A DNA stretch of 64,000 bases from contig CAYNLK010000005.1 of NCBI GenBank assembly GCA_964398055.1, forward strand, positions 77,875 through 141,874, given 5' to 3'. Origin of the DNA: an uncultured Caldilineaceae bacterium (GTDB taxonomy: Bacteria > Chloroflexota > Anaerolineae > 4572-78 > J111). The notes below the pieces were generated by a model. The model made no database searches. It was not told where the DNA came from and was given only the letters and a program-made list of their open reading frames with translations. Of the stretch, positions 34,175 to 55,995 are shown piece after piece; the stretch's first letter is position 1, and each line of letters starts with the position of its first letter. Both the position numbers and the translations under genes were made by a program.

Positions 34175-34197
34175 TGCGGCTCGATGACCACGTCTTT
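34167..34197. repeat. Right copy of the 31-bp direct repeat bracketing the PTS cassette
   Basis: CGGGTTAATGCGGCTCGATGACCACGTCTTT. It overlaps the ptsI stop codon and the last 9 codons of the convergent gene 34171..38241. Confidence 0.85.
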
Positions 34198-39871: not shown

Positions 39872-40291
39872 ATGATCCCGGATGACACAGAACTTGTGCC
39901 GGAGGAATCAACCGGCTATCGCCCCGGCCCCTTAGCGGTGCTGATCACTTTATTGGTGGTGTTGGCGATGCTGATCACCCTGCTCTGGCCGCTCTTCTAT
40001 ACCGGCTCGGGCCGCCGCCCCACGCCAACGCCGATACCCACCTTTTTGCTGGAGGCGCACGCCCTCCAGGTAATACCTCCGCTCAAAGTGAGCGTAAAAT
40101 CAAAAGAGCCTCTCATCGTAATGAAAGGCTCAATCGGATGCAAGGGGTCTCTTTTGTTAAATTTTGTGGGCGGCGGGTTCTCTCTGGAACCCTCAGCACA
40201 ACCCAATTCCATCTTTTATGTTGTTGGCCCCGCTCCGTCTATGAATATTATACCACAATTCGCGCTGGAAATAAAGGTCGCCTGTGCCTGA
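39872..40291 (+). CDS. Hypothetical single-TM protein
   Basis: RBS GGAGAGAAG and a TM helix LAVLITLLVVLAMLITLLW. The 3' half has lower GC. It overlaps the next gene by 8 nt. Confidence 0.45.
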   Translation: MIPDDTELVPEESTGYRPGPLAVLITLLVVLAMLITLLWPLFYTGSGRRPTPTPIPTFLLEAHALQVIPPLKVSVKSKEPLIVMKGSIGCKGSLLLNFVGGGFSLEPSAQPNSIFYVVGPAPSMNIIPQFALEIKVACA

Positions 40292-43200
40292 TCTAATCGA
40301 AACGCTCGCCAGCTACACCCCCGCCTTAATAACCCGGCGTTTGGCTGTTGACCCGACGCCTATTACGGCCCCCGCGTCGGAACGTTTTCCGGCGGCGGTG
40401 CTGTTTGCCGATATTTCCGGCTTTACCGCCCTGACGGAACGGCTGGCCCAGCGCGGCCCGGCCGGCGCGGAGGAGTTGACCCAGCTCCTGAACACCTATT
40501 TTGACCAACTGATTCAGCTCATCACCGGCTACGGCGGCGATATCGTCAAGTTTGCCGGCGACGCCTTGATTGCCCTTTGGCCGGCGACGAGACAAACTGA
40601 ACTGCCGGCTAAGGCGCAGTTAGCCCTGGCCGTCCACCGGGCCGCCCGCTGTAGCCTGCTAACCCAGCAACGGCTCAACGGTTACGAAGTTGCGCCCGGC
40701 ATTCAACTCTCTCTCAAATTGGCCCTGGGCGCCGGCGAGATTTTAACCATGCACCTGGGCGGCGAGTACGGCCGGTGGGAGTTTCTGGTGACCGGCGATC
40801 CGCTCATTCAGGTTGGCCGGGCCGGGCAACGGATCGGCCCGGGGGAAGTCATTCTCTCTTCGGAAGCCTGGGCGCTGGTCGAAAAGGTTGCCGTCGGCGC
40901 GCCGCTCCTGGCGCCCCGGTCGACCCACGCCACCGCCGCAAACCCTACTTCTGAAGAACGAGCTGATATTTTGCTGAAAGACATTCCCGAGACGCTGCCG
41001 GTTGCCCCCGCCGATGGCCCGCCACTCGATAAACCCAGGCTACCCCCGCAGGCCGAAGCCGGCCTGAAGGCTTACATTCCCGGGGCCATTCTGGCTCGCC
41101 TGGCAGCCCGCCAAACCGGCTGGCTGGCCGAACTGCGCCGGGTAACCATTCTCTTTGTCAACCTGCCTGATCTAACCTACACCATGCCTCTGGAACAGGC
41201 CCAAACGGTGATGCGCACCTTGCAGCAGGCCCTTTACCGCTACGAAGGCAGCATCAACAAACTCAGCGTCGACGAGAAGGGGGTGATGCTGATTGCGGCC
41301 CTGGGCCTGCCCCCCCTGGCCCACGAAGACGACGCTACCCGAGGCGTGCTGGCGGCCCAGGCCATGCAGACCAAATTACTGGAGCTGGGACTGCGCAGCG
41401 CCATTGGCGTCACCACGGGGCGGGCTTTCTGCGGCACTGTTGGCAATGCGCAGCGCCGCGAATACACCATGATCGGCGATGTGGTCAACCTGGCGGCCCG
41501 GCTGATGCAGGCCGCCCCCGCCGACATCCTGTGCGATGCAGCCACCTTTCAGGCGGCCCGGAACACGATGGAGTTTGAACCGCTCCCGGCGATCACAGTC
41601 AAAGGTAAGAGTGAGCCGGTCGCGGTCTATCGACCGCTGGGGCAAAAAGAGTCGGCCCACCGCCACCAAACGATCATGGTCGATCGCCAGGCGGAGCGAA
41701 CCACGCTGGTAGATCGTCTGCAAACCTTGCTCCGAGGTCGCGGCAGCGTGGTCATCATCGAGGGCGAAACCGGCATCGGCAAATCCAGTCTGGTGGCCGA
41801 TTTGCTGGCCCAGGCCGACGTTTTGGACGTTACCAGCCTGATCGGCGGCGGCGACGCCATCGACAAATCAACCCCCTACCACGCCTGGCGACCCGTCTTT
41901 AAACAGTTGTTCAAGCTGGATTCTTTGCCCGACGACCCAGCCCGGCAGCGGGCCTACGTTCTGGCTCAACTGGCCCCGGCCTGGCGCACGCTGGCCCCGC
42001 TCCTCCAGCCGGTTCTACCGCTGGATTGGCCCGACAACGACATCACCAAACAAATGACCGGCAAGATCAGGGCTGATAACACTCACCAATTGTTGGTCAA
42101 CTTGCTGCAACAAGCGGTGCAAGGCGATGGTTCGGCTGCCCGCCCCTATCTCCTGGTGCTGGAAGATACCCACTGGCTTGACTCGGCCTCGTGGACTTTA
42201 ACCCTGCTGGTAGCCCAACAGGTTGCACCCTTGTTGCTGGTCGTTGTCACCAGGCCGCTGGCCGAACCCCGCCCGGCTGAATACAAAGAATTGCAGCAAA
42301 GCCCAACATGCACCTTACTTTCCTTGAACAATCTGTCCCTGCCCGATACAACCGCTCTGGTCAGCCACCGGCTGCAGGTCGACACGCTGCCGGAGTCGCT
42401 GGCCGAACTGATTTACGCCAAAGCCGGGGGGAATCCCTTCTTTTGCGAAGAGTTGGCCCTGGCCCTGCGAGATACCGGTTTTATCACTGTCGCCGATGGT
42501 CAATGCCGGCTCACGGTTAAATCCAGCAGCCTGCAAGATTTGCACCTGCCCGATACCGTGGAAGGAGTCATCACCAGCCGGATCGACCGCCTGACCCCGG
42601 CCCAACAGTTGACCCTGAAGGTAGCCAGCGTGATCGGACGAGCCTTTGAGTACGCCCTGCTGCACGATGTTCACCCCATCGAGGCCGACCGTACCTTTTT
42701 GGCCGATTATCTCGATACGCTCGACCGGCTGGATATTACCGAGCTAGAGTCGCCCGAACCGGACCTGGCTTACATTTTCAAGCAACTGACCACCCAGGAA
42801 GTGGCCTACAATATGCTGCTGTTCGCTCAGCGGCGGGCGCTCCATCAGGCCGTGGCTGAATGGTACGAACGCACGTACGCTGACGATCTATCACCTTTTT
42901 ACTCCATACTGGCTTATCACTGGCAGGCAGCCAACGCCATTCCCAAAGCTATTGACTACCTAGAAAAAGCCGGCCAGCAGGCTTTGCACAACTACGCCAA
43001 TGCCGAAGCGGTGGAGTTTTTCAGCCGGGCGCTGGCCCTGACCGAACCAGGCCCGGCCGAGGTAGACGGGGAGCAGGCTGCGGTTGAGGCGGCCTCGCTG
43101 CGTTTGCGACGGGCCGGTTGGGAAACAAACCTGGGCCAGGCTTACGTTAACTGGGCCAAGCTCAGCGAAGGCCGCGCCCACCTGGAACGGGGCCTGGCGC

Positions 43201-44489
43201 TGCTGGGTTACCCCTTGCCTCAAAGCCGAGCCGGCCTGCTGAGCGGCCTGGCCGGCCAGGTCTGGCGGCAAACCGTGAACCGCTTCTGGCCCGCCCGTGC
43301 CCTGGGGCGGGGCGCGGCCAGCCGGCCTGTTTTGCTGCAAGCCGCCCGGGCTTACGAAGGTCTGACCGCGGTCTACTACTTTGCCAATGAGTCGCTGCTG
43401 ACCCTGTACGCGGCCTTTCGCTCCCTGTCTCTGGCCGAAGCAGCCGGGCCGTCGCCCGAACTGGCTCGAGGCTATGCCTCCGTTGGGGTAATCATCAGCT
43501 TTGTGCCGCTGCATCGCCTGGCCAATCTGTACTGCCGGCGGGCTTTGGAGATGGCCGGCCAGATCGATGATTTGCCGGCGCGGGCCTGGGTCTTCCTGCT
43601 GGCGGGAGTCTATTATGCCGGCGTGGGCCGCTGGGCCGAGGCGGAGACCCTCCTCACCCAAGTCAAGGAAATTTCTGAACGGTTGGGCGACCATAGCCGC
43701 TGGAGCGACGCCGTAGGTAACCTGGGCATGGTCCATTATTTTGAAGGTCACTTTCAACAGAGCGCCGAACTGTATGACCAACTGCTGGTTTCGTCAGAGC
43801 GGCGGAGCGATGCGCACAATCGGGCCTGGGCGCTGCGGGGGCAGGCTTACTGTTTGTTGCCGTGCGGTGAATTTGCCGGAGCGCTAGATCGTCTCCAAAC
43901 CATTCAAACCATCCTCAGCCAGAATCCCGACATTGTGGACGAAGCCTTGCACATCGACGTGTACGGCCTGCTGGCGCTGACCCGCGCCCGCCGCCACGAA
44001 CCGGACCAGGCGCTGGCTGCGGCCAACCAGGCGGTCAGCCTGATCGCCAAAACATCGCCGACCTCGTACCTGTCGCTGCCTGGCTATGGCGGCGTGGTAG
44101 AAACTTATCTGGGTCTCTGGGAACATCACCTGGCGACCGGTGCGCCTCTTCCTCAAAATCTGAAAGCCAATATTCGACAGGCCTGCCGGGCTTTGGGCAG
44201 TTATGCCAGGGTATTCCCGATTGGCCGGCCGCGGGCCTATCTCTGTCGCGGCTCATTCGAATGGCTGTCCGGGCGACCCTATCTGGCCCGCCAACTTTGG
44301 TCCCGGAGCCTGAGCGCGGCCCAGCGGCTGGGGATGCCCTATTCGCAAGGCCGGGCGCTTTACGAACTGGGCCGCCATCTGCCGCCCACCGACCCGGCCC
44401 GCCTGGCCCACTTGAACCGCGCCGGCGAAATTTTCAACCAACTTCAGGCTACTTACGAATTACAGCGAGTGCAGGAAATCTTGAGCTGA
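40284..44489 (+). CDS. Tandem class III nucleotidyl cyclase (CHD x2) - P-loop STAND ATPase (AAA_16) - TPR protein
   Basis: CHD1 is AAVLFADISGFTALTERL...KFAGDALIA. CHD2 is VTILFVNLPDLTY...GTVGNAQRREYTMIGDVVNLAARL. Walker A is IEGETGIGKSSL, and the C-terminal region is helical and TPR-like. The start is GTG. Confidence 0.85.
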   Translation: MPDLIETLASYTPALITRRLAVDPTPITAPASERFPAAVLFADISGFTALTERLAQRGPAGAEELTQLLNTYFDQLIQLITGYGGDIVKFAGDALIALWPATRQTELPAKAQLALAVHRAARCSLLTQQRLNGYEVAPGIQLSLKLALGAGEILTMHLGGEYGRWEFLVTGDPLIQVGRAGQRIGPGEVILSSEAWALVEKVAVGAPLLAPRSTHATAANPTSEERADILLKDIPETLPVAPADGPPLDKPRLPPQAEAGLKAYIPGAILARLAARQTGWLAELRRVTILFVNLPDLTYTMPLEQAQTVMRTLQQALYRYEGSINKLSVDEKGVMLIAALGLPPLAHEDDATRGVLAAQAMQTKLLELGLRSAIGVTTGRAFCGTVGNAQRREYTMIGDVVNLAARLMQAAPADILCDAATFQAARNTMEFEPLPAITVKGKSEPVAVYRPLGQKESAHRHQTIMVDRQAERTTLVDRLQTLLRGRGSVVIIEGETGIGKSSLVADLLAQADVLDVTSLIGGGDAIDKSTPYHAWRPVFKQLFKLDSLPDDPARQRAYVLAQLAPAWRTLAPLLQPVLPLDWPDNDITKQMTGKIRADNTHQLLVNLLQQAVQGDGSAARPYLLVLEDTHWLDSASWTLTLLVAQQVAPLLLVVVTRPLAEPRPAEYKELQQSPTCTLLSLNNLSLPDTTALVSHRLQVDTLPESLAELIYAKAGGNPFFCEELALALRDTGFITVADGQCRLTVKSSSLQDLHLPDTVEGVITSRIDRLTPAQQLTLKVASVIGRAFEYALLHDVHPIEADRTFLADYLDTLDRLDITELESPEPDLAYIFKQLTTQEVAYNMLLFAQRRALHQAVAEWYERTYADDLSPFYSILAYHWQAANAIPKAIDYLEKAGQQALHNYANAEAVEFFSRALALTEPGPAEVDGEQAAVEAASLRLRRAGWETNLGQAYVNWAKLSEGRAHLERGLALLGYPLPQSRAGLLSGLAGQVWRQTVNRFWPARALGRGAASRPVLLQAARAYEGLTAVYYFANESLLTLYAAFRSLSLAEAAGPSPELARGYASVGVIISFVPLHRLANLYCRRALEMAGQIDDLPARAWVFLLAGVYYAGVGRWAEAETLLTQVKEISERLGDHSRWSDAVGNLGMVHYFEGHFQQSAELYDQLLVSSERRSDAHNRAWALRGQAYCLLPCGEFAGALDRLQTIQTILSQNPDIVDEALHIDVYGLLALTRARRHEPDQALAAANQAVSLIAKTSPTSYLSLPGYGGVVETYLGLWEHHLATGAPLPQNLKANIRQACRALGSYARVFPIGRPRAYLCRGSFEWLSGRPYLARQLWSRSLSAAQRLGMPYSQGRALYELGRHLPPTDPARLAHLNRAGEIFNQLQATYELQRVQEILS

Positions 44490-44490
44490 G

Positions 44491-45432
44491 ATGGATGAGC
44501 CGCAACTGAGCCAGATTATTACCGCTGCCGTGACCCGTCTCCGGGCCGAGTTGAGCCAGGCCGCGCCCTATCTGGCCGGGCATGTGGAGCCGTGGCTGCT
44601 CCAACTGGCCGGCAGCAACCAGCCTGCCGCCTATTTCAAACATCCCCTGGCTTTTCCTGCACTCTTATTGCCCTGGTGGCTGGAGCAAACCATCCACCCC
44701 CAACCCAACCCAAATTTTCAGGCCGACCTGGCTTACTCCACCATTAACGGCTACTACTACATCCGCCTGATCGACAACCTGATGGACGGTCACGCCACGG
44801 TCGAGCTGGCTCTGCTGCCGGCGCTGGGCTTCTTTCACAGCCAATTCCAGCTTATTTACCAGCGCTATTTTGCGGCGGACCAGCCCTTTTGGGATTTCTT
44901 CATCACCACCTGGCTCCAGTCGGCCGAGGTTACACTGCAAGACGCCGGGCTGACCGACATCGACGAGGCGACCTTCAAGCAGGTGACGGCCAAGAAAGTA
45001 GGCGCGGCCAAGATTCCGCTGGCGGCGGTCTGTTACCGGTTTGACCGGCCTGCACTCATTTCACCTTGGTCCGAACTCGTCGATCAACTGGGCGGCTGGC
45101 ATCAATTCTTGAATGATCTCTTGAGCTGGCATCGCGACCACGCCCGCCAGACCTGCACCTACTTCCTGTCTGAGGCGGAGCGACAGCGGGTCAGCGATGA
45201 GCCGATGGTGTGTTGGGTCGCTCGCGAGGGCTTTGACTGGGCTATGGGCCGGCTGCAAGAATGGTTAGCAGAGCTGCAAGCCCTGGCGATGGAACTGCAC
45301 AGCCCTCCCTTGAACGCCTACCTGGTTGAGCGTGGCCGGATGCTGCAACAGCAGCAAGCGGAAGTGGCGGAGGGATTGGCTCAACTGACCAGGGTGCTCA
45401 ATTTGAATTGGGACTTACCGGGCCGGTCATAG
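44491..45432 (+). CDS. All-helical protein resembling trans-polyprenyl diphosphate synthase / class I isoprenoid synthase fold, with degenerate Asp-rich motifs
   Basis: YYYIRLIDNLMDGH resembles the FARM region (LIHDDxxD), AKKVGAAKIPLAAV resembles the KTAxL region, and HQFLNDLLSWHRD resembles SARM (FQxxDDxxD) or an NSE-like motif. The start lies 1 nt after the cyclase stop. It is paralogous to the N-half of 48373..50355. Confidence 0.45.
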   Translation: MDEPQLSQIITAAVTRLRAELSQAAPYLAGHVEPWLLQLAGSNQPAAYFKHPLAFPALLLPWWLEQTIHPQPNPNFQADLAYSTINGYYYIRLIDNLMDGHATVELALLPALGFFHSQFQLIYQRYFAADQPFWDFFITTWLQSAEVTLQDAGLTDIDEATFKQVTAKKVGAAKIPLAAVCYRFDRPALISPWSELVDQLGGWHQFLNDLLSWHRDHARQTCTYFLSEAERQRVSDEPMVCWVAREGFDWAMGRLQEWLAELQALAMELHSPPLNAYLVERGRMLQQQQAEVAEGLAQLTRVLNLNWDLPGRS

Positions 45433-45536
45433 AACATCACATAGGCAAATCATTCATCCTTTTGCTACCTTTGAGGTATAATGAATGTGGTAGGATGTGA
45501 TAGGATGTGATAGTACTTAAGAATTGAGAAACGGTG

Positions 45537-46295
45537 ATGGAAAGCTTACAGTTGACTGACAAAACCTTTCCAAAAGACATTTTGGCGGATATTCGGGCGA
45601 TTGAACAAATCCTGCTTCAGTATGGAGCAGAAAAAGTCATCTTATATGGATCAATGGCCAGAGGAGATTATCATGCCAATTCAGATATTGATATCTGTGT
45701 AGAGGGATTACCCCATCAAAATTATTTTCGAGCTTTCGCTGCATGTATGATGCAGGCTCAACGCCCGATGAGCGTTCTTGATTTTTCCGATACTTATGGT
45801 TACCTCAGAGAGAGAATCTTGGAAGAGGGGAAAATAATTGCTATGAGTATAAATAGATTGAGAGAAGAAATTGAGTTTGGTTTAGAAAACCTGGAAAAAA
45901 TCTATCTGAATATCTCAAAGTTTTCTCAACAAGATACCTCAAAAGATATTGTGATAGCTGCATTAACTTATGAATGCTTTGGATACTATAATGCCATTGA
46001 ACATCTGATTATCAGATTGCTGAAATATCTTTCAATTGAGATACCAACTGGACCATTCTCTCATAGAGACATCTTGCGAACTTTCTATGCCGTAGCAGAT
46101 GACAGAGGATTCAAAGTTGATGAGGAAAGTTCTACCGTTATAGAAAATTTAATGGCCTTCCGTCATATTGCTACCAAAATCTACAGTTTTTTGGTAGACT
46201 GGGAAAAACTTGAAGTGATTATTGATGACATAAAGGGGAGTCACAATAATATCAAACAACTTTTCACTGCTATTCTAAATATGGTAAACAATTGA
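45537..46295 (+). CDS. Fused minimal nucleotidyltransferase (MNT) - HEPN-like protein on a low-GC islet
   Basis: NTase motif ILYGSMARGDYHANSDIDI. The C-terminal helical domain has FRHIATKIY where HEPN/DUF86 proteins carry RNxxxHxY. Local GC is about 40% against about 60% in the flanks. Confidence 0.65.
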   Translation: MESLQLTDKTFPKDILADIRAIEQILLQYGAEKVILYGSMARGDYHANSDIDICVEGLPHQNYFRAFAACMMQAQRPMSVLDFSDTYGYLRERILEEGKIIAMSINRLREEIEFGLENLEKIYLNISKFSQQDTSKDIVIAALTYECFGYYNAIEHLIIRLLKYLSIEIPTGPFSHRDILRTFYAVADDRGFKVDEESSTVIENLMAFRHIATKIYSFLVDWEKLEVIIDDIKGSHNNIKQLFTAILNMVNN

Positions 46296-46298
46296 AGG

Positions 46299-47969
46299 AT
46301 GATCAACCCAAATAGTGAGGTGAATCTGTTCGAACTGGGCCAACACCATTTTAACCGGTTCAAGCATGAGTTCGCTGCCTACGGCATCGAGACCGACCCG
46401 GCCCTGGAGCTGCGCCGGGGCAGCGGCATGTTGTGTTATTACAGCCTGGAGGATGGCCACATCTACCTGGCGGTGCCGGACCTGACCAGCCCGGTCGGCA
46501 AACTCCAGGCGCTGTTTCTGCGCTCTTTGCTCGGTTGCGCCAGCAATGAGGAGCTGCTGCGCTTCTTTGAGTTGTTCATTCCGCACGTAATTGCCCACGA
46601 GTTGGCTCACCACTACCGCCATCGCTATGGCCAGTTTGGACAAAGCATGTATGAGGAAGAGCAAATTGCCAATAAGTTAGCCGTGGCCGTGGTCAAGCAT
46701 CGCCTTTCGCCGGCAGCCAAAGCGCAGGCCAGAGAGTTTCTGCGGCGAGCTATGGAGGCCCTCTCGGCCAAGATGGCCGCTCAAAGCATCGCCGTTGACT
46801 CCTACTACAGCGTGCTGCACGCCCTCAACGTCTCCGGCCAGATCGGCGTGGCCGATTTTGAAAATGTCGAACTCATTAAAACGATGTTCGGGGTGTCGGA
46901 AGATGAGTTACTCAGAGGCAGCGGCCAACTATCGGCCGATTTGATCGAACGCCTGGAGCAGCGGCCTAACCTGATCCAGGAAATTGACGAGCAATATACT
47001 TCGGACCAGATCAAATATATTTACTACCACGTCGGCTGGTTGTACCTGGATTTGACCAGCCGGGAAACGGAGTATGTGGATGAGTTTGCCCGCGACTACC
47101 TGGGCCTGGGCCAGAAATTTCTGCCGGCCCCTCAAGCCGACCCTGACCCCGGCGTTGCCGCCATTCAAGCCTGCTTCAAGGCTTATCAAGAGGCGCAGTT
47201 CCTCTCTGAGGCGGCAGCCCGCTATTTTTACAAAAGGTACCGGGCCTTATTGCTGGCCAAATTGAAATCGGTTCAACTGCCGGTGGCGGCCCATACGGCC
47301 AGCCTGCAACGCGAGGCCAGCTTAATTCTGGAGAACTGGAGCGGGCATGAGTCCGACACGTTGAACTATCTGGCCGAGTTGGCCCCGCCGGCGCTGCGCC
47401 GCTTGTTCCCTCGCAGTATCGCCGCCTACCTGGAACCTGAGCTGGACGTGCTGGCCGCCTTACCCACCGCCACCGACCGGCGGTTATGGCAGCAGGCCCG
47501 GGGCCTGGTTGAGGACGAGGCGGCTCAAAATACCCTGTACCGCCTGGCCATCCTTGACCAATCCGATATTTATCGCCCCTTGCCGGCCGGGCTGATGCTG
47601 GAATTGGCCCAGCTCTTTTGCCAGGCGCATTACGCCGCCGGCGAAACCGTCATCTGGCAGAATGAGCGGAACGACGACGTTTACTTTTTGATCGACGGCC
47701 AGTTGGAGGTCTTGGTTACCCGTAATGGCCAGGTTGAGCGGATTGACCTGATTGAGCCGGGTCAAATGTTTGGTGAAATCGCCTTCTTCACCGAGGACCC
47801 CCGCTACGCCACCGTGCGCGCTGTGGCCCCGTCGCGCTGTTTTGTGTTGACCGACGCCGATTTGCAGATCTTTGCCTTCAAACACCCGGCGATCTTGATG
47901 CAGATGGCCGGCGCGCTGGCCAAACGGTTGGCCAATCTGTATCAAACCAGCCGCAAAGAGACGGTCTAA
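46299..47969 (+). CDS. HExxH (putative zinc metallopeptidase-like) domain protein with C-terminal cyclic-nucleotide-binding (CAP_ED) domain
   Basis: HVIAHELAHHYRH with a downstream EEEQIAN. The cNMP domain is VIWQNERNDDVYFLIDGQLEV...GQMFGEIAFFTEDPRYATVRAV. Confidence 0.7.
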   Translation: MINPNSEVNLFELGQHHFNRFKHEFAAYGIETDPALELRRGSGMLCYYSLEDGHIYLAVPDLTSPVGKLQALFLRSLLGCASNEELLRFFELFIPHVIAHELAHHYRHRYGQFGQSMYEEEQIANKLAVAVVKHRLSPAAKAQAREFLRRAMEALSAKMAAQSIAVDSYYSVLHALNVSGQIGVADFENVELIKTMFGVSEDELLRGSGQLSADLIERLEQRPNLIQEIDEQYTSDQIKYIYYHVGWLYLDLTSRETEYVDEFARDYLGLGQKFLPAPQADPDPGVAAIQACFKAYQEAQFLSEAAARYFYKRYRALLLAKLKSVQLPVAAHTASLQREASLILENWSGHESDTLNYLAELAPPALRRLFPRSIAAYLEPELDVLAALPTATDRRLWQQARGLVEDEAAQNTLYRLAILDQSDIYRPLPAGLMLELAQLFCQAHYAAGETVIWQNERNDDVYFLIDGQLEVLVTRNGQVERIDLIEPGQMFGEIAFFTEDPRYATVRAVAPSRCFVLTDADLQIFAFKHPAILMQMAGALAKRLANLYQTSRKETV

Positions 47970-47985
47970 GGTTACTTTTGCCCCA

Positions 47986-48014
47986 TTGCGAATCATCCGG
48001 CCGCTGTGATATAT
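47986..48014 (+). promoter_or_regulatory. Sigma-70-type promoter candidate for the small peptide gene
   Basis: TTGCGA-N17-ATATAT (or N18-TATATA), upstream of the GGAGGG RBS. Confidence 0.4.
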
Positions 48015-48068
48015 ATGAGTTGTAAATCTAATTTATAACCAACTGTATCTAGCACGGAGGGAACCAAA

Positions 48069-48272
48069 ATGGGTGCCGATTTACAACTGCTGGTAGGAAA
48101 AATTTTATCTGATCAGGATTTCGCCAAAGCGCTGGCCGAAAACCCCCAGGATACGCTGGCCCGGGCCGGCATCGAGCCGACCATCGACCTGTTGGAAGCC
48201 CTGGAGGGCGTCGACGCCGAGGCGCTGCAAAAGCTGGCGGCCAATTTTGGGGATCAGCAAGCTGCCCTGTAG
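48069..48272 (+). CDS. 67-aa acidic helical peptide resembling Nif11/NHLP-type RiPP leader regions
   Basis: Strong RBS GGAGGG. The sequence LLVGKILSDQDFAKALAENPQDTLARAGIEPT is like the xLxDPxFRxxLLxDPxxxL leader pattern. It has its own terminator. Confidence 0.6.
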   Translation: MGADLQLLVGKILSDQDFAKALAENPQDTLARAGIEPTIDLLEALEGVDAEALQKLAANFGDQQAAL

Positions 48273-48307
48273 TAAGCCAGGCTCTGCCAAAATTCAGGTT
48301 AAACGCT

Positions 48308-48348
48308 ACCTGGGTTATGCTCTGCAGGTAGCGTTTTTTTTGTTGCTG
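48308..48348 (+). terminator. Strong intrinsic terminator
   Basis: AAACGCTACCTG (48308..48319) and CAGGTAGCGTTT (48332..48343) form the stem, followed by TTTTT. Confidence 0.75.
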
Positions 48349-48372
48349 GATTGAAGGGTTTTAGGGTCTGGT

Positions 48373-50355
48373 TTGACTGAAATGAGACTAACCGAGCAAT
48401 ACCAACCCTTACGAGATCAAATCTGGCCGGCAGTAGACCAATTTTTCGACAGCCTGCCGCCGCCGCTCTTCCGGCAGAGCGTTCTACTCAAAAACAATCT
48501 GGCCACGCTCTACAGCGACACCGGCCAATTCAAGGATATCCTGCGCCGGGAGCAGGACCTGCCCCTGCTGTACCTCCATCTCTGGCTATTGGATGATCTC
48601 GGCTGCCCCCACCCGGCGATGCGCGCCAACCTGGCCCAAGATCTTTTTCTGGCGATACTATTCACCTTTGGCGTGATCCATACCCAGCACAGTATCCTCG
48701 ACGACAGCACCAATTTCGATCAGACCTACCTGTATCTGGCCCAAACGCTGATCCAACAGAGCGACATCCACCTGGCCAAGCTCTTTGCCGGCGACTCGCC
48801 CTTCTGGCAGCACCGGCAGGCATATTGGGCTGAATACAGCGCGGCAACTTTGACGACCGCCGACGGCAGACTACCGACCGCCGAGTCACTGTCACGAAGG
48901 TTGGCCTTCACCAAAATACCGGTTGCGGCCGTAGCCCTCAGCACCGGGCAAGAATCGAACCTGTCTCAGCTTGTCACGATGATGGACCGGCTCAACTTTG
49001 TGTGGCAAACGCTGCACGACTTTGCCACCCTGCGGCGAGATTTGGCCCAGCGTCGCCCGAGCTATCCCATTTACCGCACCCTGCTGGCCGCCGGTATCGA
49101 CCCGCTCGAACCGGTCGCGCCGGAGCGAGTGCTGGGCGCGCTGGTGTTGAGCGGCGCCGTGACCGAGATTTGCGACGACTGCGTTGCCAACCTGGCCGAG
49201 GGTCGGGCCATCGCCGAGGCGCTCCAGCTACCCAACCTCCTCGAATATTTTGGCGTCGTTGAACGGTTGGTCCAGCAGGTCAGTGTCTTATTCAATGTTG
49301 ATCAAAAGCAGCCAGGTTCTTCGACCAGTCCCTCCCGGCGACCGTTGTTCGCGCCTTACGCCGAGCCGCTGGCCAGCGTCATTCACATGGCCAAGGGTTA
49401 CTTGCTGGCCGACCCCACTTTCCGGGAAAGTTGGGAAGTGCAGCGCCGCGGCGCCTTTGGCCGGCCGGAGCTGACGGCCAAAGCCTTCCCGGCCGGCCTG
49501 ATCGTCGAGATTTTGGCCCGGCACGGCCACAACGTCTCGGCCATGGTGGCGTGGATTTTTGAGACACTGCGGGACACCAATTACCGCTATTACGACTTCC
49601 CGGACATGCCACCCGACGCCGACGACCTGGGGCTGCTGCTGCGGCTCTTCCCGTACGCCGAACAGCCGGCCAGCCATCGCTCCAACCTGGAAATTCCGCT
49701 GGGCTGGCTGGCCGAGAACATCACCGAATCTGGCGAGATGCCAGTCTGGTTCACCCGCCAGCGAGATTTCGATCAAACCAAAATGCACTTTGTGGCGTTA
49801 TGGGGAGAAAGCTGTGTAACGGTGGAAACCAACCTGCTGCTGGGGCTACTTGCCTACGACCCGGTCCATTACCGTAGCATGATCGAACAATCGGCCCGGA
49901 GCATCCTGGCCCGCTGGCTCAACCGGGGGCTGAGCGCCGCCAGTCACTACACGCCGCTCTATTCGCTCTGGCTGGGGTTGGAATTGATCGCCAAACTGGT
50001 CGCAAGCCCGCTTCAGACCGAGCTGCAACCTCAGCTTGACCGGGTCGCCCGGCGACTGGCCGGCCGGCTGGCCGCTGAAACCAAACGGGGTTTCATCTCG
50101 CCCCAAGAGGCCGCTTTCTTGACCCTGGCCTGCCTCTCGCCCGATCTACCGGCCACGGCCAAAAATCTGTTCGATCCTGATTGGATAACCATCCTCTTGA
50201 AAGCCCAACGCTACGACGGCAGTTGGGCAGCCGAGCCGCTCTACGGCACCCCCACTCGCGGCGAGTTGGCTGCCTGGTACAGCAGTCGTCCGGTGACGAC
50301 CGCGTTTTGTTACCACGCGCTTAAAACCTATTCGAATACCCAACTATCAACTTGA
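48373..50355 (+). CDS. Two-domain protein: polyprenyl-synthase-like (class I isoprenoid fold) N-half fused to an alpha/alpha-toroid prenyltransferase/terpene-cyclase-like C-half with DxDD and QW motifs
   Basis: The N-half has FGVIHTQHSILDDSTNFD (compare IEFIHTATLLHDDVVD of polyprenyl synthases) and WQTLHDFATLRRD. The linker is QKQPGSSTSPSRRP. The C-half has PPDADDLGLLL (DxDD, about 49615..49626) and LLKAQRYDGSW (QW motif). The start (TTG 48373 or ATG 48382) is uncertain. Confidence 0.5.
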   Translation: MTEMRLTEQYQPLRDQIWPAVDQFFDSLPPPLFRQSVLLKNNLATLYSDTGQFKDILRREQDLPLLYLHLWLLDDLGCPHPAMRANLAQDLFLAILFTFGVIHTQHSILDDSTNFDQTYLYLAQTLIQQSDIHLAKLFAGDSPFWQHRQAYWAEYSAATLTTADGRLPTAESLSRRLAFTKIPVAAVALSTGQESNLSQLVTMMDRLNFVWQTLHDFATLRRDLAQRRPSYPIYRTLLAAGIDPLEPVAPERVLGALVLSGAVTEICDDCVANLAEGRAIAEALQLPNLLEYFGVVERLVQQVSVLFNVDQKQPGSSTSPSRRPLFAPYAEPLASVIHMAKGYLLADPTFRESWEVQRRGAFGRPELTAKAFPAGLIVEILARHGHNVSAMVAWIFETLRDTNYRYYDFPDMPPDADDLGLLLRLFPYAEQPASHRSNLEIPLGWLAENITESGEMPVWFTRQRDFDQTKMHFVALWGESCVTVETNLLLGLLAYDPVHYRSMIEQSARSILARWLNRGLSAASHYTPLYSLWLGLELIAKLVASPLQTELQPQLDRVARRLAGRLAAETKRGFISPQEAAFLTLACLSPDLPATAKNLFDPDWITILLKAQRYDGSWAAEPLYGTPTRGELAAWYSSRPVTTAFCYHALKTYSNTQLST

Positions 50356-51138
50356 GGCAGCCTGATCCAGCAGGTCGGCCAGGGTCGCGGCCGTCTGCTT
50401 GGCATAGAACCAAACCACCCCCGGCTTGGTTTCAAACAGCACGGCCAGCAAAAACTGCTTGTTCACTTCACAGGCGTAGAGATGCTGATCGGTCCCTTCG
50501 TGGTAGCTGGATTTAAAGATGGAACGGCTGCCGAGCATGTTGGCTAATTCCGTTGCCGCGGCAAAGTTTTTGGCCACAAACAAGCCAATACTGGCCACTT
50601 CCACATCGCTGCCCTGGCCAACGACCTGAACCGGCTCACCCTCGGCGCTGAGCAAGAGCACCAACCGGGCGTTAGTATTGATCCGTAAAATCTCCAATTG
50701 CTCTCGCATGGCCTGGCCGGAAGGCTTAACCCCAGGTGAGCCAGTCGAGTCCTTGTCTTGGCGGGCCAGGCGAATCGTCTTTTGAATAACCCGGTGGATT
50801 TCGTCGATGGTAAATGGTTTATCCAGGTAGCCATCGATGCCAACTATTTTGGAGGTATCACGCAGCCGGCTGGTGCCATAAGCCGTCATCAAAACCACCT
50901 GAGTATCAGGCGAAATCTTATGAATGGCCGTCGCCAGGTCGACGCCGGTGATTTTGGGCATCATGTAATCGGCCACCACCAGGTCAAAGGGTTGTTCTTC
51001 CAACTGCTGCAAAGCCTCGGTGCTATCCATAGCTGTGTGAATCTCATAATCTGCCCCCAATCGACTGAGGCTATTCTCCAACATGTAAAGAACCGTTTGA
51101 TCATCGTCCACAATCAAGACACGTTTACGGCCTAGCAT
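50347..51138 (-). CDS. Response regulator: REC domain + Roadblock/LC7 (MglB-like) domain
   Basis: REC motifs are VLIVDDD, DLVVADYMMP and YLDKPF. The C-terminal LVLLLSAEGEPVQVVG...FLLAVLFETKPGVVWFYAKQ matches the Roadblock pattern. I prefer the ATG at 51138. The 3' end overlaps the convergent gene by 9 nt. Confidence 0.7.
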   Translation of the reverse strand: MLGRKRVLIVDDDQTVLYMLENSLSRLGADYEIHTAMDSTEALQQLEEQPFDLVVADYMMPKITGVDLATAIHKISPDTQVVLMTAYGTSRLRDTSKIVGIDGYLDKPFTIDEIHRVIQKTIRLARQDKDSTGSPGVKPSGQAMREQLEILRINTNARLVLLLSAEGEPVQVVGQGSDVEVASIGLFVAKNFAAATELANMLGSRSIFKSSYHEGTDQHLYACEVNKQFLLAVLFETKPGVVWFYAKQTAATLADLLDQAASS

Positions 51139-51191
51139 TTCATTACCCAAACTTTCCGGCTGACAATCACCTGCGCCAATACCCGATAACC

Positions 51192-52064
51192 TTAGCCCTG
51201 GCCGTTGGTTTTGTCACCCAACAAGTCATCGAACTCCTCAGCCATGGTCATAGCTTTGTCGTCTACAGCCTCAGTTTCGGCTCGCTGTCCGAGCAGGCGG
51301 GCCAGGTTGGTCGCGGTCTGTTTGGTATAAAACCAAACCGTACCGGGTTTACCGGTTGAGCCAAACAGCACCGCTAACAAAAATTCGCCGTTGACGTCAT
51401 AGGCATAGATATTATACTTGCTGCCTTCGTGATAAATCGATCTGAAGACAGAAGCATTGTCATCGAAGAGGGTGGTCAATTTAGAAACGGTCAAGAAATT
51501 GGCCGCCACGAACATAGCCAACCGGCTAACTCTGGTATGGTCAACTTGTCCCACCTCTTGCAGGAGCTGTCCGGCTGAGTTCAATAGAAGGACACAATGG
51601 CTGCCGGTTTGGTTGTGCAACAACTTGAGCTGTTCATACACCGCCTGGCTCTGGGCAGGGGATTCACCTGGTTCCTGGTTGGCCGCCGGACGGGTTTGCG
51701 CCATAATGCGCTGCACCACCTCCAAAATTTCGGGCACCGAAAACGGCTTGCCCAGGTAACCACCTAACTGCATCGTCTCAACTCTATCCCGCAGACCGAT
51801 GGTATCGTAGGCGCTCATCAGCACCACCTGGGTGTCCGGTGAGCGTTCTCGGATTTCCTGGGCCAATTCCAGGCCGGTCATGCCGGGCATCATGTAGTCG
51901 GTGATGACCAAATCATACTTGCGCTGTTGGATCAGAGCCAACGCCTCAACCCCATCCACTGCCGTACTGACCTTGAAGTTGGGGCCCAGGCGCTTGATGC
52001 TGTGGGTCAAAAGGAAGACGATATCTCGGGCGTCATCGACGATCAGGACATGTTTATCATTCAT
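51192..52064 (-). CDS. Response regulator: REC domain + Roadblock/LC7 (MglB-like) domain (paralogue)
   Basis: REC motifs are VLIVDDA, DLVITDYMMPG and YLGKPF. The C-terminal VLLLNSAGQLLQEVG...FLLAVLFGSTGKPGTVWFYTKQ matches the Roadblock pattern. Confidence 0.7.
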   Translation of the reverse strand: MNDKHVLIVDDARDIVFLLTHSIKRLGPNFKVSTAVDGVEALALIQQRKYDLVITDYMMPGMTGLELAQEIRERSPDTQVVLMSAYDTIGLRDRVETMQLGGYLGKPFSVPEILEVVQRIMAQTRPAANQEPGESPAQSQAVYEQLKLLHNQTGSHCVLLLNSAGQLLQEVGQVDHTRVSRLAMFVAANFLTVSKLTTLFDDNASVFRSIYHEGSKYNIYAYDVNGEFLLAVLFGSTGKPGTVWFYTKQTATNLARLLGQRAETEAVDDKAMTMAEEFDDLLGDKTNGQG

Positions 52065-52254: not shown

Positions 52255-52310
52255 TTTGAGATTTGCAATTTGCAATTTGCAGGTTGAAATTTGAGATTTG
52301 AGATTTGCAA
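52255..52310. repeat. Eight tandem AT-rich heptamers
   Basis: TTTGAGA TTTGCAA TTTGCAA TTTGCAG GTTGAAA TTTGAGA TTTGAGA TTTGCAA, located in the divergent intergenic region. Confidence 0.85.
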
Positions 52311-52355
52311 CTCTTGACCGGCAACAACTATCCAGCCAAACCAAAACAGTGGTCG

Positions 52356-55058
52356 ATGAGGCACGCTTATTTGTGGCTGGTCTACCTGGTTTTGGCCGTC
52401 ATTTTGACCTGGCCAACCATCGCCCGGTTCACCACCCACGTGCCGGGCGACGGCAGCGATGATCCGGCCATCGCCTGGAATCTGTGGTGGATCAAGTACA
52501 CCCTGCTAAACCGGGGGCAGAATCCCCTGGTCACCGATTACATGGCCTACCCCATCGGCCTTAACCTGGCCTTCTACACCCTCACCGTCCTCAACGGGCT
52601 GACCACCTTACCCCTGCTGCTCAATTTTGGCGTCATCACGGCCAGCAATCTGCACCTGCTGTTCACCTTTGCCGCCGGCGCTTACGGGGTCTTTCTGCTG
52701 GTGAGATATTTGTTGACCACAATGGATGGCGACGCCACGTCCAAACGCCGGTTGGTTTGGTTGAGCGCCGCCATTGCCGGCGGCTGTTACGCTTTTGCCA
52801 GTAGTAAATTGTCCTACGTCGCCCTGGGCCAATTCAACATTGCCAGCACTCATTGGCTTCCGCTTGCCGTACTGTATGTCATCCGGGCCAGGCGCCCGCC
52901 GGAGCGACTCAAGAACGCGGTTCTGGCCGGCCTCTTTCTCGCTATGCAGGCCTGGACCGAAATGACGTATGCCTCTTTTCTGCTGATATTCATCGGTTTA
53001 TATTGGCTCTACTGGCTCCTGGTCGGCTTGGCAACCCGGCCAGGCGAGTCCAGCCGGTGGCGATTACTCCGCCCCCATCTACGGGCCGCCGCAGTCCTGG
53101 GCTTAACCTTTGCCCTGGGCATCAGCCCCCTGCTGGCCCAATTGCTGCCGGAGATGCAGGTCGAGGGTGACTTTTGGGTACAGGGCAGCGGCTTTGCCGA
53201 GGCTTTTAGCGCCGACCTGCTCGGTTTTATCATCCCCACGGTCCACCATCCCCTCGTGGGCCATTGGGTCGCCCAAACCAACATTGCCTTCCAGATGGGC
53301 CAGCATATCTACATCGGTTTTGTCTTGCTGGGCTTGCTGGTCATCGCCGGGATCACCGGTTACCGCAGCCCGGAAATTCGTTTCTGGTTGATCGCTGCCG
53401 GCCTCTTTGGCCTGCTCTGCCTCGGTCCGGTCATCACCATCAACGGCCACAGTACCGGCCTGCCCGGCCCCTTCGTCCTGCTGCAGAACCTCCCTTTTTT
53501 CAAAGGTAATCGCTATCCCAGCCGCTACAGTGTCATGCTCATCCTTTGCTTGAGCATTCTGGCCGGTTATGCCCTGGTTCAATTGGGCCGCTGGCTCTCC
53601 ATTCCCCGCTCCTCGCTCTCCGCTCCTCGCTCTCCGCTCTCCGCCCTGTTCCTGGCCCTCCCCCTCCTGTTCATCTTCGAACACCTGTCCACACCCCTGC
53701 CCCAATCCGACCTGCGTGTCCCGGCGGCCTATCAACTCATCGCCGCCGATGCGGGCGACTTCACCATTTTGGATATTCCCCTGGCCTGGCGCAACGGCTT
53801 TCGGGTTACCGGCCCGCTGACGACCCAATTTATGTTCGGCCAGTTCTACCAGACCAGCCACCACAAGCGGCTGCTGCAAGCCAATACCAGCCGCAATCCC
53901 GAATTCAAGTTCCAATATTTTACCCAGGCCCCCATCCTCAACTCGCTGCTGGCCTTGACCACCGGCCACGCCTTGCCGGCAGAGCGTTGGGCCGCCGACC
54001 GGGCCATTGCCGCCGATGTGCTCAACTTCTTTGAGGTCAACTATGTTGTGGTGCGCCCTTTTCACTACGACAAATTTGACGGCGCGGCCACGATTACGGT
54101 GACGGAGCAGAACGCCATCCCCTACCTTGAGTCTGTCCTGCCGCTCGAACCGATTTATGCCGGACCTGAGTTAAAGCTCTACCGGGTAAACTATGAGCCT
54201 GGGGCGACAACCACTCCCTTCCGGGTTGATACCAACTCGCCCCTGGCCCCGCTTTACTTTGGCGAAGGCTGGGGTCACTTAACGCCCGGCCGGCCGGTGG
54301 CAGCCCAGCGTCGCGCAGCCCGTCTGCTGCTGCCCATGAACGCCGGCCAACAGCGGCTCAGCCTGCGCCTCCGCCTGCCGGATGAATTTCAGAGCCAGAC
54401 GCAAGCTCTCCGCATCGAACTGAACGGCTGGCAATCGCCGCCTCAGGCCGTAACGCCGGAGTGGCACGAACTCAGCTTCGAGCTGCCGGCGGAGGCGATC
54501 CGGCCGGGTCTCAACAACGTGCGCCTCCACTTTGAGCGAGTTGTCCCTTTGGACCGGACAACCGGGCCGCCAGTGACGCCCAATATCACGGTTGTCAGCG
54601 CCGGCGAAGAGGTGGGCGATTTTGGGCATATCTACGTCAACGGTTTCGAATTTTCACCCAATCAGCGCGGCTACAATGTGGCTGTGATTCAACCCAATGG
54701 CGCGGTTATTGCCGCGGCCAATTTTGACACCCATCTCGACCCGGCCGCCTCGACCGCCCTGGCCGACTTCATCACCGCGGCCCCGGCCAATGCCTTCATC
54801 GCCGTGGCCGCGGCCGACGAAGCCAGCTTGAATCTGGGCGAAGCAGCCGTACAAAGCCTGCAAGCTATTGGCGCTCGCGGCGATTTGTGGGGCTGCTTTC
54901 GCTGTAGCCACGCTTTGCTGTACAACCCGCTCAGTGGGACCACCCTTGAGGCCCTTGACCCGTTGGGACCGGCCGGGGTGACGGCCGGTTGGGGGCTAAC
55001 CGAACCGGGTCTGGCCGCGCTGGTTGATTGGATTCGGGTTGAATCCGTGGCAGAATAG
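52356..55058 (+). CDS. Large polytopic GT-C-like membrane protein with C-terminal ILEI/FAM3-like domain
   Basis: About 14 TM helices. The N-terminus is TWPTIARFTTHVPGDGSDDPAIAWNLWW. The C-terminal GHIYVNGFEFSPNQRGYNVAVIQPNG...AFIAVAAADEAS resembles interleukin-like EMT inducer domains. I prefer the ATG at 52356. Confidence 0.6.
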   Translation: MRHAYLWLVYLVLAVILTWPTIARFTTHVPGDGSDDPAIAWNLWWIKYTLLNRGQNPLVTDYMAYPIGLNLAFYTLTVLNGLTTLPLLLNFGVITASNLHLLFTFAAGAYGVFLLVRYLLTTMDGDATSKRRLVWLSAAIAGGCYAFASSKLSYVALGQFNIASTHWLPLAVLYVIRARRPPERLKNAVLAGLFLAMQAWTEMTYASFLLIFIGLYWLYWLLVGLATRPGESSRWRLLRPHLRAAAVLGLTFALGISPLLAQLLPEMQVEGDFWVQGSGFAEAFSADLLGFIIPTVHHPLVGHWVAQTNIAFQMGQHIYIGFVLLGLLVIAGITGYRSPEIRFWLIAAGLFGLLCLGPVITINGHSTGLPGPFVLLQNLPFFKGNRYPSRYSVMLILCLSILAGYALVQLGRWLSIPRSSLSAPRSPLSALFLALPLLFIFEHLSTPLPQSDLRVPAAYQLIAADAGDFTILDIPLAWRNGFRVTGPLTTQFMFGQFYQTSHHKRLLQANTSRNPEFKFQYFTQAPILNSLLALTTGHALPAERWAADRAIAADVLNFFEVNYVVVRPFHYDKFDGAATITVTEQNAIPYLESVLPLEPIYAGPELKLYRVNYEPGATTTPFRVDTNSPLAPLYFGEGWGHLTPGRPVAAQRRAARLLLPMNAGQQRLSLRLRLPDEFQSQTQALRIELNGWQSPPQAVTPEWHELSFELPAEAIRPGLNNVRLHFERVVPLDRTTGPPVTPNITVVSAGEEVGDFGHIYVNGFEFSPNQRGYNVAVIQPNGAVIAAANFDTHLDPAASTALADFITAAPANAFIAVAAADEASLNLGEAAVQSLQAIGARGDLWGCFRCSHALLYNPLSGTTLEALDPLGPAGVTAGWGLTEPGLAALVDWIRVESVAE

Positions 55059-55119: not shown

Positions 55120-55995
55120 ATGATTATGGGCAACAAATTGACCGAACTTTTGCAGAAATTATTTGGCAGCCAGAGTGAATCAGGCCAAACGGCGCCGCTA
55201 ACAACGGACGAGGCCAAACTGGTCAACTCGCTCCGCAAGTTGTCGCTGCTGCAAGATATCCCGGAGCGCATTCTGGTCAAAATTGCCCGGCAGGCCAGCT
55301 TACGCGAGCTAACCAAAGGGCAGCTCCTGGTCCACCAGGGCGATCCCAGCGACTCGCTCTTTATCATCCGCACCGGCTGGATCAAGATTGTAGCCGAAGG
55401 CAGCGGCGGTGAAGAGGTGGTGCTCAACCAGTGCGGGCCTGGCCAGGTCATCGGCGAGATGTCCCTGCTGGACCAAAAACCCCGCTCCAACACAATGGTG
55501 GCGCTCAGCCCGGCCAACCTGTTGGAAATCAAATATGAAACCGTGGTTGAGGCGCTCACTGAATATCCCCAACTGGCCCTGGCCTTTCTACGCGATATGT
55601 CGGACCGGCTGCGCTTTGCCAATACCTACATCGAAGAGACCATCATCTGGTCCCAACATATCGCCACGGGTGACTATGATTTTGTCCAGAATCAGGTGGC
55701 CGAAACCCAATCGACGATCGTCGATATCAACCTGTCCGACCAGGCCCGGGCCGGCGCTTTCCTGTCGGCCTTCTTCAAGATGGTCGAGGGGGTCAAAAAG
55801 CGGGAAGAAGAGTTGAAACGGCAGCTTCACCAACTGACCATTGAAATCGATGAGGTCAAACGCCAACAGGCCGTAGCCGAGCTGACCGAAACGGAATTTT
55901 TTGAGCAGTTGCAAGAGTCGGCCCGCAAGCTGCGCGAGGCGCGTAGCTTGAAAAAGCATCCACCATCTGAGACCGGCGATACCACGGACAGTTGA
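55120..55995 (+). CDS. Cyclic-nucleotide-binding (CAP_ED) domain protein with C-terminal coiled coil
   Basis: LFIIRTGWIKIV...GQVIGEMSLLDQKPRSNTMVAL, then the coiled coil EELKRQLHQLTIEIDEVKRQQ. Confidence 0.75.
   Translation: MIMGNKLTELLQKLFGSQSESGQTAPLTTDEAKLVNSLRKLSLLQDIPERILVKIARQASLRELTKGQLLVHQGDPSDSLFIIRTGWIKIVAEGSGGEEVVLNQCGPGQVIGEMSLLDQKPRSNTMVALSPANLLEIKYETVVEALTEYPQLALAFLRDMSDRLRFANTYIEETIIWSQHIATGDYDFVQNQVAETQSTIVDINLSDQARAGAFLSAFFKMVEGVKKREEELKRQLHQLTIEIDEVKRQQAVAELTETEFFEQLQESARKLREARSLKKHPPSETGDTTDS

Follow-up and report, generated by a model that had tools for sequence, protein, structure and literature searches.

A class II terpene cyclase domain of the MstE type fused to a degenerate isoprenoid-synthase fold, and its conserved cassette with an NHLP-clan peptide

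We analysed a gene in a stretch of 64,000 nt from an uncultured Caldilineaceae bacterium (Chloroflexota; assembly GCA_964398055.1, contig CAYNLK010000005.1, positions 77,875 to 141,874). This whole stretch is called the window, and all coordinates refer to it and to its forward strand unless stated otherwise. The gene (48373..50355) encodes a fusion of two helical domains. Sequence profiles and a predicted structure place the C-terminal (beta) half among the class II terpene cyclases, as a domain resembling the single-domain MstE type. The N-terminal (alpha) half has the fold of isoprenoid synthases with degenerate metal motifs. The fusion gene is part of a conserved cassette that also encodes a paralog of the alpha domain, a small peptide of the NHLP clan, an HExxH protein with a cyclic-nucleotide-binding domain and a nucleotide cyclase joined to a STAND ATPase. 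A preliminary description of the sequence had suggested a bifunctional class I and class II terpene synthase. This was overstated, because the N-terminal half carries neither the canonical metal motifs nor a match to a curated model. The most likely substrate also changes, because the conserved cassette, a context absent from that description, holds the NHLP-clan peptide. We tentatively propose that a prenyl chain borne by this peptide is cyclised within the cassette.

The open reading frame (ORF) comprises 660 codons when read from TTG. The probable start is the ATG at 48382, which is favoured by public gene calls on identical contigs (657 aa) and by the family consensus 'MxxxxxYQ'. Residues were numbered from the TTG, which is an offset of +3 with respect to the likely 657-aa protein. 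The ORF and the motifs quoted for it earlier (PPDADDLGLLL, LLKAQRYDGSW at residues 607-618, GEMPVWF and VETNLLLGLL) were all recovered in the translation. AlphaFold2 (AF2) with the family alignment gave a mean predicted local distance difference test score (pLDDT) of 93.6 and a predicted template modelling score (pTM) of 0.92 for the whole chain. The model bore out the expected two modules with a flexible linker: helical segments at residues 8-306 and 332-659 were separated by a low-confidence Ser/Pro segment (~311-330). We delimit the N-domain at residues 1-306 (48373..49290), the Ser/Pro-rich linker at residues 307-331 (49291..49365; the string QKQPGSSTSPSRRP at residues 309-322) and the C-domain at residues 332-660 (49366..50352). 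Since the pTM of the whole chain is 0.92, the model implies a defined packing of the alpha domain against the toroid.

The C-domain was assigned by Foldseek and by profile searches. In the Foldseek comparison with the PDB, the 11 top chains were all class II terpene cyclases. The best matches were 8pak and 8paj, single-domain proteins of ~345 aa (E 2e-7, TM-score 0.68 normalised to the target), followed by the drimenol synthase AsDMS, the drimenyl diphosphate synthase SsDMS, two copalyl diphosphate synthases (CPSs) and a squalene-hopene cyclase (SHC). A phmmer search of the PDB with the single target sequence returned a chance match only. The full-length family profile matched SHC (1.4e-4) and AsDMS (1e-3). 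A profile of the C-domain only, built from 40 diverse loci, matched SHC at 1e-12 through the QW repeats of the latter, and it gave near full-length alignments with 8pak (7e-12), the 'Prenylcyclase' 6ij1 (2e-11), MstE (2e-10) and 8paj (3e-9). Further matches were SsDMS (1.5e-8), AsDMS (2.5e-7) and then lanosterol synthase and CPSs. The AF2 model shows no gamma domain in the cyclase part, which is a single toroid, yet fused to an alpha domain of 306 aa.

The proposed general-acid motif D415-A-D417-D418 (49615..49626) had been read as the DxDD of class II cyclases, and the alignments agree with this. The segment PPDADDLG aligned on the catalytic acid motif of MstE (GDADTTG), 6ij1 (EDADSTG) and 8pak (ADADSTA), and the result was the same with a profile trimmed before the QW repeat. 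By our estimate, a lone DxDD is expected by chance in roughly one in ten proteins of such size, so the weight rests on conservation rather than on the motif alone. Conservation was assessed in a family alignment of 57 homologs (48% mean column identity). D415 and D417 were invariant, and D418 was conserved in at least 90% of the sequences. In the wider set of 40 C-domain sequences, which includes myxobacterial homologs at 26-30% identity, D417 was still invariant. The middle Asp of DxDD is the general acid in class II cyclases, which is D417 here. The segment LLKAQRYDGSW was rightly recognised as a QW repeat. It is the only one (Q612-R-Y-D-G-S-W618, 50206..50226), it was matched to the QW repeats of SHC and its residues Q612, D615, G616 and W618 were invariant. 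C481 (49813..49815), likewise invariant, aligned with the H-x-C motif common to MstE, 6ij1 and 8pak. Conserved aromatic residues were Y406, Y407, W477, Y526, Y530, W533, W604, W618, W635 and Y636. By homology, the DxDD motif probably lies at the toroid cavity.

The N-domain had been called polyprenyl-synthase-like. This holds for the fold, as indicated by Foldseek and by the alignment with the paralog, but not for the metal motifs or for curated models. The Foldseek matches were polyprenyl diphosphate synthases and farnesyl diphosphate (FPP) synthase, with 4lob, 4jyx, 3oyr and 3aqb among them (E 6e-3 to 2e-2; TM-score 0.55-0.66 normalised to the target). At the position of the first Asp-rich motif, where DDxx(xx)D would be expected, the window protein reads H106-S-I-L-D110-D111 (48688..48705). 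The family reads E-x-I-L-D, with E at position 106 in 41/57 members (H in the window) and D at position 110 in 49/57, and the paralog reads D-N-L-M-D. At the position of the second Asp-rich or NSE/DTE motif, the window protein reads H215-D216-F-A-T219-L-R-R-D223 (49015..49041) and the family R-D-I-x-T-L-R-R-D, with R or H at the first position in most members. Here only D/E216 (52/57) and D223 (57/57) are well kept, together with R221 and R222. Further conserved positions of the N-domain are D116, D205, N208 and Q212.

The curated models polyprenyl_synt, Terpene_synth_C and SQS_PSY did not match the window protein at E<=10. SQS_PSY was touched by one of the 57 members and by one of 27 members, both below threshold, and an NCBIfam model named 'terpene biosynthesis-related' also gave a sub-threshold match. 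These isolated sub-threshold matches point to the isoprenoid-synthase superfamily, short of membership. We conclude that the N-domain derives from a trans-prenyl synthase-like ancestor. Its motifs set it apart from canonical class I synthases, and it more likely binds the substrate, caps the active site or acts as a ComQ-like non-canonical transferase than serves as a diphosphate-ionising cyclase.

The paralog of the N-domain is a protein of 313 aa encoded upstream (44491..45432). BLASTP aligned it with the N-domain over 257 residues (E 4e-9), and hhalign gave a probability of 99.2% (E 2.6e-19). Its motifs are better preserved: R92 is invariant, as are D95-N-L-M-D99 (IDNLMD) at the first motif and D209...D216 at the second (NDLLSWHRD), which is NSE-like. 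The paralog profile matched the FPP synthase 4f62 (E 0.0096), with NDLF..KD aligned on the second Asp-rich motif FQxxDDxxD.

The family is large, and its tested members matched no Pfam or NCBIfam model. A word-indexed search with clustering at 90% identity returned 131 clusters; every one bears the name 'hypothetical', and most come from Anaerolineae/Chloroflexota metagenome-assembled genomes (MAGs). With clustering at 50% identity, a full hidden Markov model scan returned 2,217 representatives with E<=1e-3, and 248 of them had E<=1e-30. Neither the whole target nor its separate halves drew a Pfam or NCBIfam match at E<=10, and PADLOC gave nothing for the target at a threshold of 0.01. The 57 members scanned singly against Pfam yielded no meaningful match. 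One homolog (P0194, 952 aa) just missed the Pfam family SQHop_cyclase_C (24.5 bits, cutoff 26.1), and the window protein had no SQHop_cyclase match. P0194 also carries an extra N-terminal class I S-adenosylmethionine-dependent methyltransferase domain ahead of the alpha-beta fusion.

The cassette of the window (40284-50355) runs in the order cyclase-STAND protein, 313-aa paralog, HExxH protein with cyclic-nucleotide-binding domain, 67-aa peptide and fusion. Distant homologs on long contigs showed the same order: a cyclase + AAA_16 + TPR protein of ~1,400 aa, a paralog of 310 aa, a cyclic-nucleotide-binding protein of 555 aa, an ORF of 67-70 aa (PF14407) and the fusion. In total, 61 genome loci were compared, of which 56 had adequate flanking sequence for counting the peptide. 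The cassette was colinear in ~25 loci from Chloroflexota, and its genes were rearranged in loci from Acidimicrobiia (L032, L035) and Eremiobacterota (L062). In the two Acidimicrobiia loci, the genes of the cyclase-STAND protein, the paralog and the peptide lie on the opposite strand and converge on the fusion.

With a profile of the small protein, a peptide homolog was found to adjoin the cyclase gene in 50/56 loci, including all myxobacterial loci (L041/L042 from Polyangium; L044-L058 and L066 from Sorangium). In Sorangium and Polyangium, the cyclase has no fused alpha domain, yet its gene is adjoined by a paralog homolog and a cyclase domain. A hidden divergent N-domain in the Sorangium homologs was considered and rejected (hhalign probability 0.2%; the upstream ORF region is unrelated). 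Since the peptide adjoins the cyclase in this large majority of loci, myxobacteria without the fused alpha domain included, the conserved core of the cassette is therefore the alpha-fold paralog, the small peptide and the class II beta domain.

The peptide gene (48069..48272) lies behind a GGAGG and encodes a small protein of 67 aa, a candidate substrate or scaffold. The protein scored 57.7 bits, above the cutoff of 40, with NF038399, the curated NCBIfam model called 'Os1348 family NHLP clan protein'. Its direct match to the Os1348 structure 6lk7 was weak (E 0.18). The conserved C-terminal tail is FG-DQQAAL in the window and, following LAxAFG, [D/E][N/Q/K][Q/K]AA[V/L/I] in the family. Related tails (NRKAAS, DRKAAS/T and NREAAC) occurred in Polyangium and in deltaproteobacterial MAG loci, and in Sorangium the tail of the peptide is REGGVGM. 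A hairpin with a 12-bp stem and a U-run, resembling an attenuator or terminator, lies between the genes of the peptide and the fusion (48301..48344; folding free energy -42.3 kcal/mol, z -4.9). An equivalent hairpin with differing stem sequences was found in ~16/22 loci. A hairpin after a precursor gene is an arrangement often used to obtain an excess of precursor over enzymes.

The two remaining proteins of the cassette have domains for making and for binding cyclic nucleotides. The protein of 556 aa (46299..47969) combines an N-terminal helical HExxH region of gluzincin-like character with a C-terminal cyclic-nucleotide-binding domain; H100-E-x-x-H104-H105 and E120-E121-Q-x-A-N, upstream of the binding domain, are invariant. 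Its model had a pLDDT of 82.8 and obtained fold matches only through the binding domain. The HExxH region matched no Pfam family and had no solved relative in the top fold matches, and phmmer against the PDB was empty. This N-terminal region of ~420 residues (46299-47570) is very strongly conserved and carries the zinc-site signature HExxHH...EEQxAN, and the whole protein has a mean column identity of 69%. The protein of 1401 aa (40284..44489) combines one or more nucleotide cyclase domains, an AAA_16 STAND ATPase and TPR repeats, and the stop of its gene precedes the start of the paralog gene by 2 nt. It seems to hold two cyclase regions ahead of AAA_16 and TPR, one PycC-like (~26-201) and one matching Guanylate_cyc (286-444). 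It also matched TIGR03903 ('TOMM system kinase/cyclase fusion protein') below the threshold.

Taken together, the reading that we tentatively prefer is that a prenyl chain borne by the peptide is cyclised within the cassette. It combines the precedents of PalQ/PalX and ComQ/ComX for peptide prenylation, the precedent of MstE for cyclisation of a tethered chain and the gene linkage. Folds, homology, motif conservation and gene linkage are what we show; all chemical steps and their order, the residue that accepts the prenyl group and the length of the chain are inferred. The 313-aa paralog, possibly with the fused N-domain, would use FPP or geranylgeranyl diphosphate (GGPP) and prenylate the C-terminal tail of the peptide in the manner of ComQ or PalQ. 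D417 of the C-domain would protonate the terminal (distal) C=C of the polyprenyl chain and start a cationic ring-closure cascade, with ring closure guided by the aromatic-lined cavity. The N-domain most likely packs against the toroid and binds and presents the head group of the substrate, and it would replace the gamma or HAD domain of other class II enzymes. The HExxH protein may then process the product, gated by cyclic AMP or a different cyclic nucleotide that the neighbouring cyclase-STAND sensor makes. That this amounts to a new class of ribosomal peptide natural products is possible but on the unlikely side. Such a class would comprise a prenyl group on the tail of an NHLP-like scaffold, cyclised in situ, with cyclic-nucleotide-gated maturation, in Chloroflexota, Acidimicrobiia, Eremiobacterota and Myxococcota.

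Several observations weigh against a peptide-borne substrate. The peptide is conserved over its full length, with ~67% identity where the enzyme has 45-52%. This is unlike the typical hypervariable core of a peptide that is made on the ribosome and modified after translation (RiPP), and a protein with a structural, carrier or regulatory role could show it just as well. Because the peptide has neither Trp nor Cys, no known prenyl acceptor chemistry applies directly; Trp was absent from 25/25 aligned peptides. Neither a transporter nor a classic RiPP recognition element turned up in the cassette. Moreover, six loci with adequate flanks (L010, L012, L016, L026, L059 and L065) had no detectable peptide or paralog near the cyclase gene.

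The main rival is a pathway to a free terpenoid or meroterpenoid, which is possible but on the unlikely side. Here, the paralog, the N-domain or both would produce or bind a prenyl diphosphate or some small molecule with a prenyl group, for cyclisation by the C-domain in the manner of MstE. The small protein would be a carrier, chaperone or regulator, and the cyclase-STAND and HExxH proteins would regulate production. All characterised relatives of the C-domain (MstE, drimenol and drimenyl diphosphate synthases, CPS and SHC) act on small molecules (PMC12414744), and Os1348, the namesake of the peptide family, is a stable dimer (PMC7726476). Besides the full-length conservation of the peptide, the loci that hold the cyclase gene alone fit this pathway. 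Against it stand the peptide itself, which comes from a leader-peptide clan and shows, across phyla, the tightest linkage to the cyclase gene of all partners, and the attenuator-like hairpin 3' of its gene, as is often found with precursor genes. In addition, no UbiA or ABBA aromatic prenyltransferase and no small-molecule tailoring gene is conserved in the cassette. Conversion of FPP or GGPP to a cyclised hydrocarbon or alcohol by one bifunctional chain, in the style of plant and fungal CPS/kaurene synthase (KS) enzymes, was the earlier suggestion and appears improbable to us. The presence of an alpha fold and a class II domain within one chain speaks for it, as do the acidic and basic residues that the N-domain retains (D110, D116, D205, N208, Q212, D/E216, R221, R222 and D223). 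However, the N-domain lacks canonical DDxxD and NSE/DTE motifs: in their place stand HSILDD and HDFATLRRD in the window protein, with H106 where the family has E and H or R at the first NSE position. No terpene-synthase or polyprenyl-synthase model matches any of the 57 members, a separate paralog with better motifs is co-encoded and the myxobacterial homologs do without the fused alpha domain.

A further alternative is a conflict or signalling module of the Pycsar kind. In such a module, a cyclic nucleotide made by the STAND-cyclase protein would activate the cyclic-nucleotide-binding HExxH protease, and the peptide would be a pro-toxin or signal that the terpenoid enzymes lipidate for action at the membrane. 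In an extreme form, the toroid would have a non-catalytic binding role. At the level of domains, PADLOC matched the cyclase to PycC and the cyclic-nucleotide-binding domain to Pycsar effectors. The STAND architecture (AAA_16 + TPR) and a toxin-antitoxin-like nucleotidyltransferase/HepT gene inserted in the window's cassette also fit. Nevertheless, no PADLOC system model matched the fusion, the peptide or the paralog, and the invariant catalytic Asp and the aromatic cavity residues argue for a working cyclase. Cyclase-STAND and cyclic-nucleotide-binding proteins are also classic companions of bacteriocin clusters (sub-threshold matches to TIGR03903 and TIGR03896). We give this module little credence. 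Least credible, and very much so, is a non-terpenoid alpha/alpha barrel (a glycoside hydrolase, LanC-like or protein-prenyltransferase-beta-like domain) in which DxDD is incidental. The barrels of GH105/UGL, cellobiose 2-epimerase and the complement thioester-containing domain did appear in the Foldseek list (E 1e-3 to 2e-2). Yet they ranked below the eleven class II cyclase chains and had no sequence support, and this reading of the toroid was rejected on these two grounds. LanC and prenyltransferase-beta were not among the 50 best fold matches, the profile searches of the PDB returned terpene cyclases only, and D415 and D417 are invariant in a motif that aligns on the catalytic one. The earlier assignment of the C-half to the terpenoid-cyclase toroids, as opposed to glycosidase or LanC barrels, is thus upheld by fold and profile alike.

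The surroundings of the cassette were also inspected. No isoprenoid precursor genes were found within the flanking 20 kb. The nucleotidyltransferase/HepT gene (45534-46295; 253 aa, a fused protein resembling the MntA/HepT type VII toxin-antitoxin system, with PADLOC PDC-S09 matches) sits between the genes of the paralog and the HExxH protein and is flanked by several promoter-like sites. It looks like an insertion into the cassette, because it was matched in none of the 61 loci compared. Two tandem genes for response-regulator receiver + Roadblock/LC7 proteins on the reverse strand (50347-51150 and 51192-52064) converge on the fusion gene, and 9 nt at its 3' end are shared with the first of them. 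This pair probably lies outside the cassette, because it is conserved only in the closest relative (L013). Further downstream on the forward strand follow a protein of 917 aa with a C-terminal ILEI (interleukin-like EMT inducer) domain (52305-55058), a second, stand-alone cyclic-nucleotide-binding protein (55120-55995) and a DUF2079 membrane protein of 880 aa (56044-58686). The cassette and its downstream genes form a local concentration of cyclic-nucleotide signalling genes. Upstream on the reverse strand, a protein of 1,355 aa (34171-38241) joins BTAD and AAA_16 to a family-5 extracellular solute-binding domain, an unusual regulator architecture that is unrelated to the fusion.

To our knowledge, the substrates described for class II terpene cyclases are limited to free prenyl diphosphates, chains of the squalene type and small meroterpenoids, and RiPP prenylation is known only as simple alkylation. 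If the preferred reading of a peptide-borne prenyl chain is true, no earlier terpene cyclase would have been known to use a substrate carried by a peptide. The gene linkage points to a meeting of the terpene cyclase and RiPP fields. Even with a free terpenoid product, the alpha(N)-beta(C) architecture informs on how beta-only active sites are shielded and on the evolution of alpha, beta and gamma domains. The cassette would also provide a genome-mining signature for an unexplored gene set in poorly cultured phyla, and its cyclic-nucleotide-binding HExxH protein would be a candidate for peptide processing gated by a second messenger.

The individual domains are of known kinds. What appears to be new is the alpha(N)-beta(C) fusion, its pairing with a paralog of alpha fold and, above all, its linkage across phyla to an NHLP-clan peptide and a cyclic-nucleotide relay, for which we found no published description. 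This agrees with the earlier statement that the domain order and size are not those of a described bacterial type: no published account of the alpha(N)-beta(C) architecture was found. The literature likewise held no description of a system that pairs an NHLP protein with a terpene cyclase, and none was found for 8pak and 8paj. The single toroid had been called atypical as well, which is true, but the MstE-type beta-only cyclases (6sbb, 8pak, 8paj and 6ij1; PMC12414744) provide a precedent.

MstE, the merosterolic acid synthase of Scytonema (6sbb), is a characterised beta-only class II cyclase, and its DxD protonates a geranylgeranyl chain on dihydroxybenzoate (PMC12414744). Like the target, MstE and the uncharacterised 8pak, 8paj and 6ij1 have a single beta toroid of ~330-365 aa, and they share with it the H-x-C motif (C481), the terminal QW repeat and the acid motif (DADT or DADS compared with DADD). 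The MstE-type proteins stand alone, whereas the target adds an N-terminal alpha domain of ~306 aa, and the identity is only ~16-17%. The target also has a full DxDD where MstE has DxD, and its gene context of peptide, paralog, HExxH protein with cyclic-nucleotide-binding domain and cyclase-STAND protein differs from that of MstE-type proteins. A survey of cyclases from 2025 filtered the MstE clade to 300-400 aa (PMC12414744), a length range that would have left out fusions of 660 aa.

The bacterial drimenol synthase AsDMS (9m7d, 9mhs) resembles the target in having a class II beta domain with a partner other than gamma (Foldseek E 5e-6, profile 2.5e-7). Unlike the target, it has an HAD phosphatase as the partner, uses free FPP and has no associated peptide. 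Fungal PvCPS (prenyltransferase + beta-gamma) and plant CPS/KS enzymes (alpha-beta-gamma) also combine an alpha fold and DxDD in one polypeptide (PMC12393454). In these enzymes, the class II part is N-terminal and a beta-gamma didomain, and the active alpha domain has canonical DDxxD. The target, in contrast, is alpha(N)-beta(C), has no gamma domain, carries degenerate alpha motifs and comes from a bacterial host.

In the PalQ/PalX and ComQ/ComX systems, a precursor of NHLP or pheromone type is modified by a prenyltransferase with the alpha fold (PMC10853753). The first Asp-rich motif is retained in ComQ, which has a pseudo second motif for acceptor binding, and the C-terminus of PalX is critical (PMC10853753). 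As in the cassette, an enzyme of isoprenoid-synthase fold is encoded beside a precursor, a likeness drawn from published descriptions. These systems differ from the cassette in that they have no class II cyclase and use a Trp acceptor, which the cassette peptide lacks. Os1348 of Pseudomonas sp. Os17 (6lk7) is a dimeric protein of 85 aa from a putative bacteriocin cluster; without it, antibiotic activity is lower, and how much of it is present depends on an HExxH/gluzincin protein encoded nearby (PMC7726476). The Os1348 cluster encodes a SagB-like dehydrogenase and lacks terpenoid enzymes, and its peptide has 85 aa compared with 67 aa here. What it shares with the cassette is a peptide of the NF038399 family together with an HExxH/gluzincin protein.

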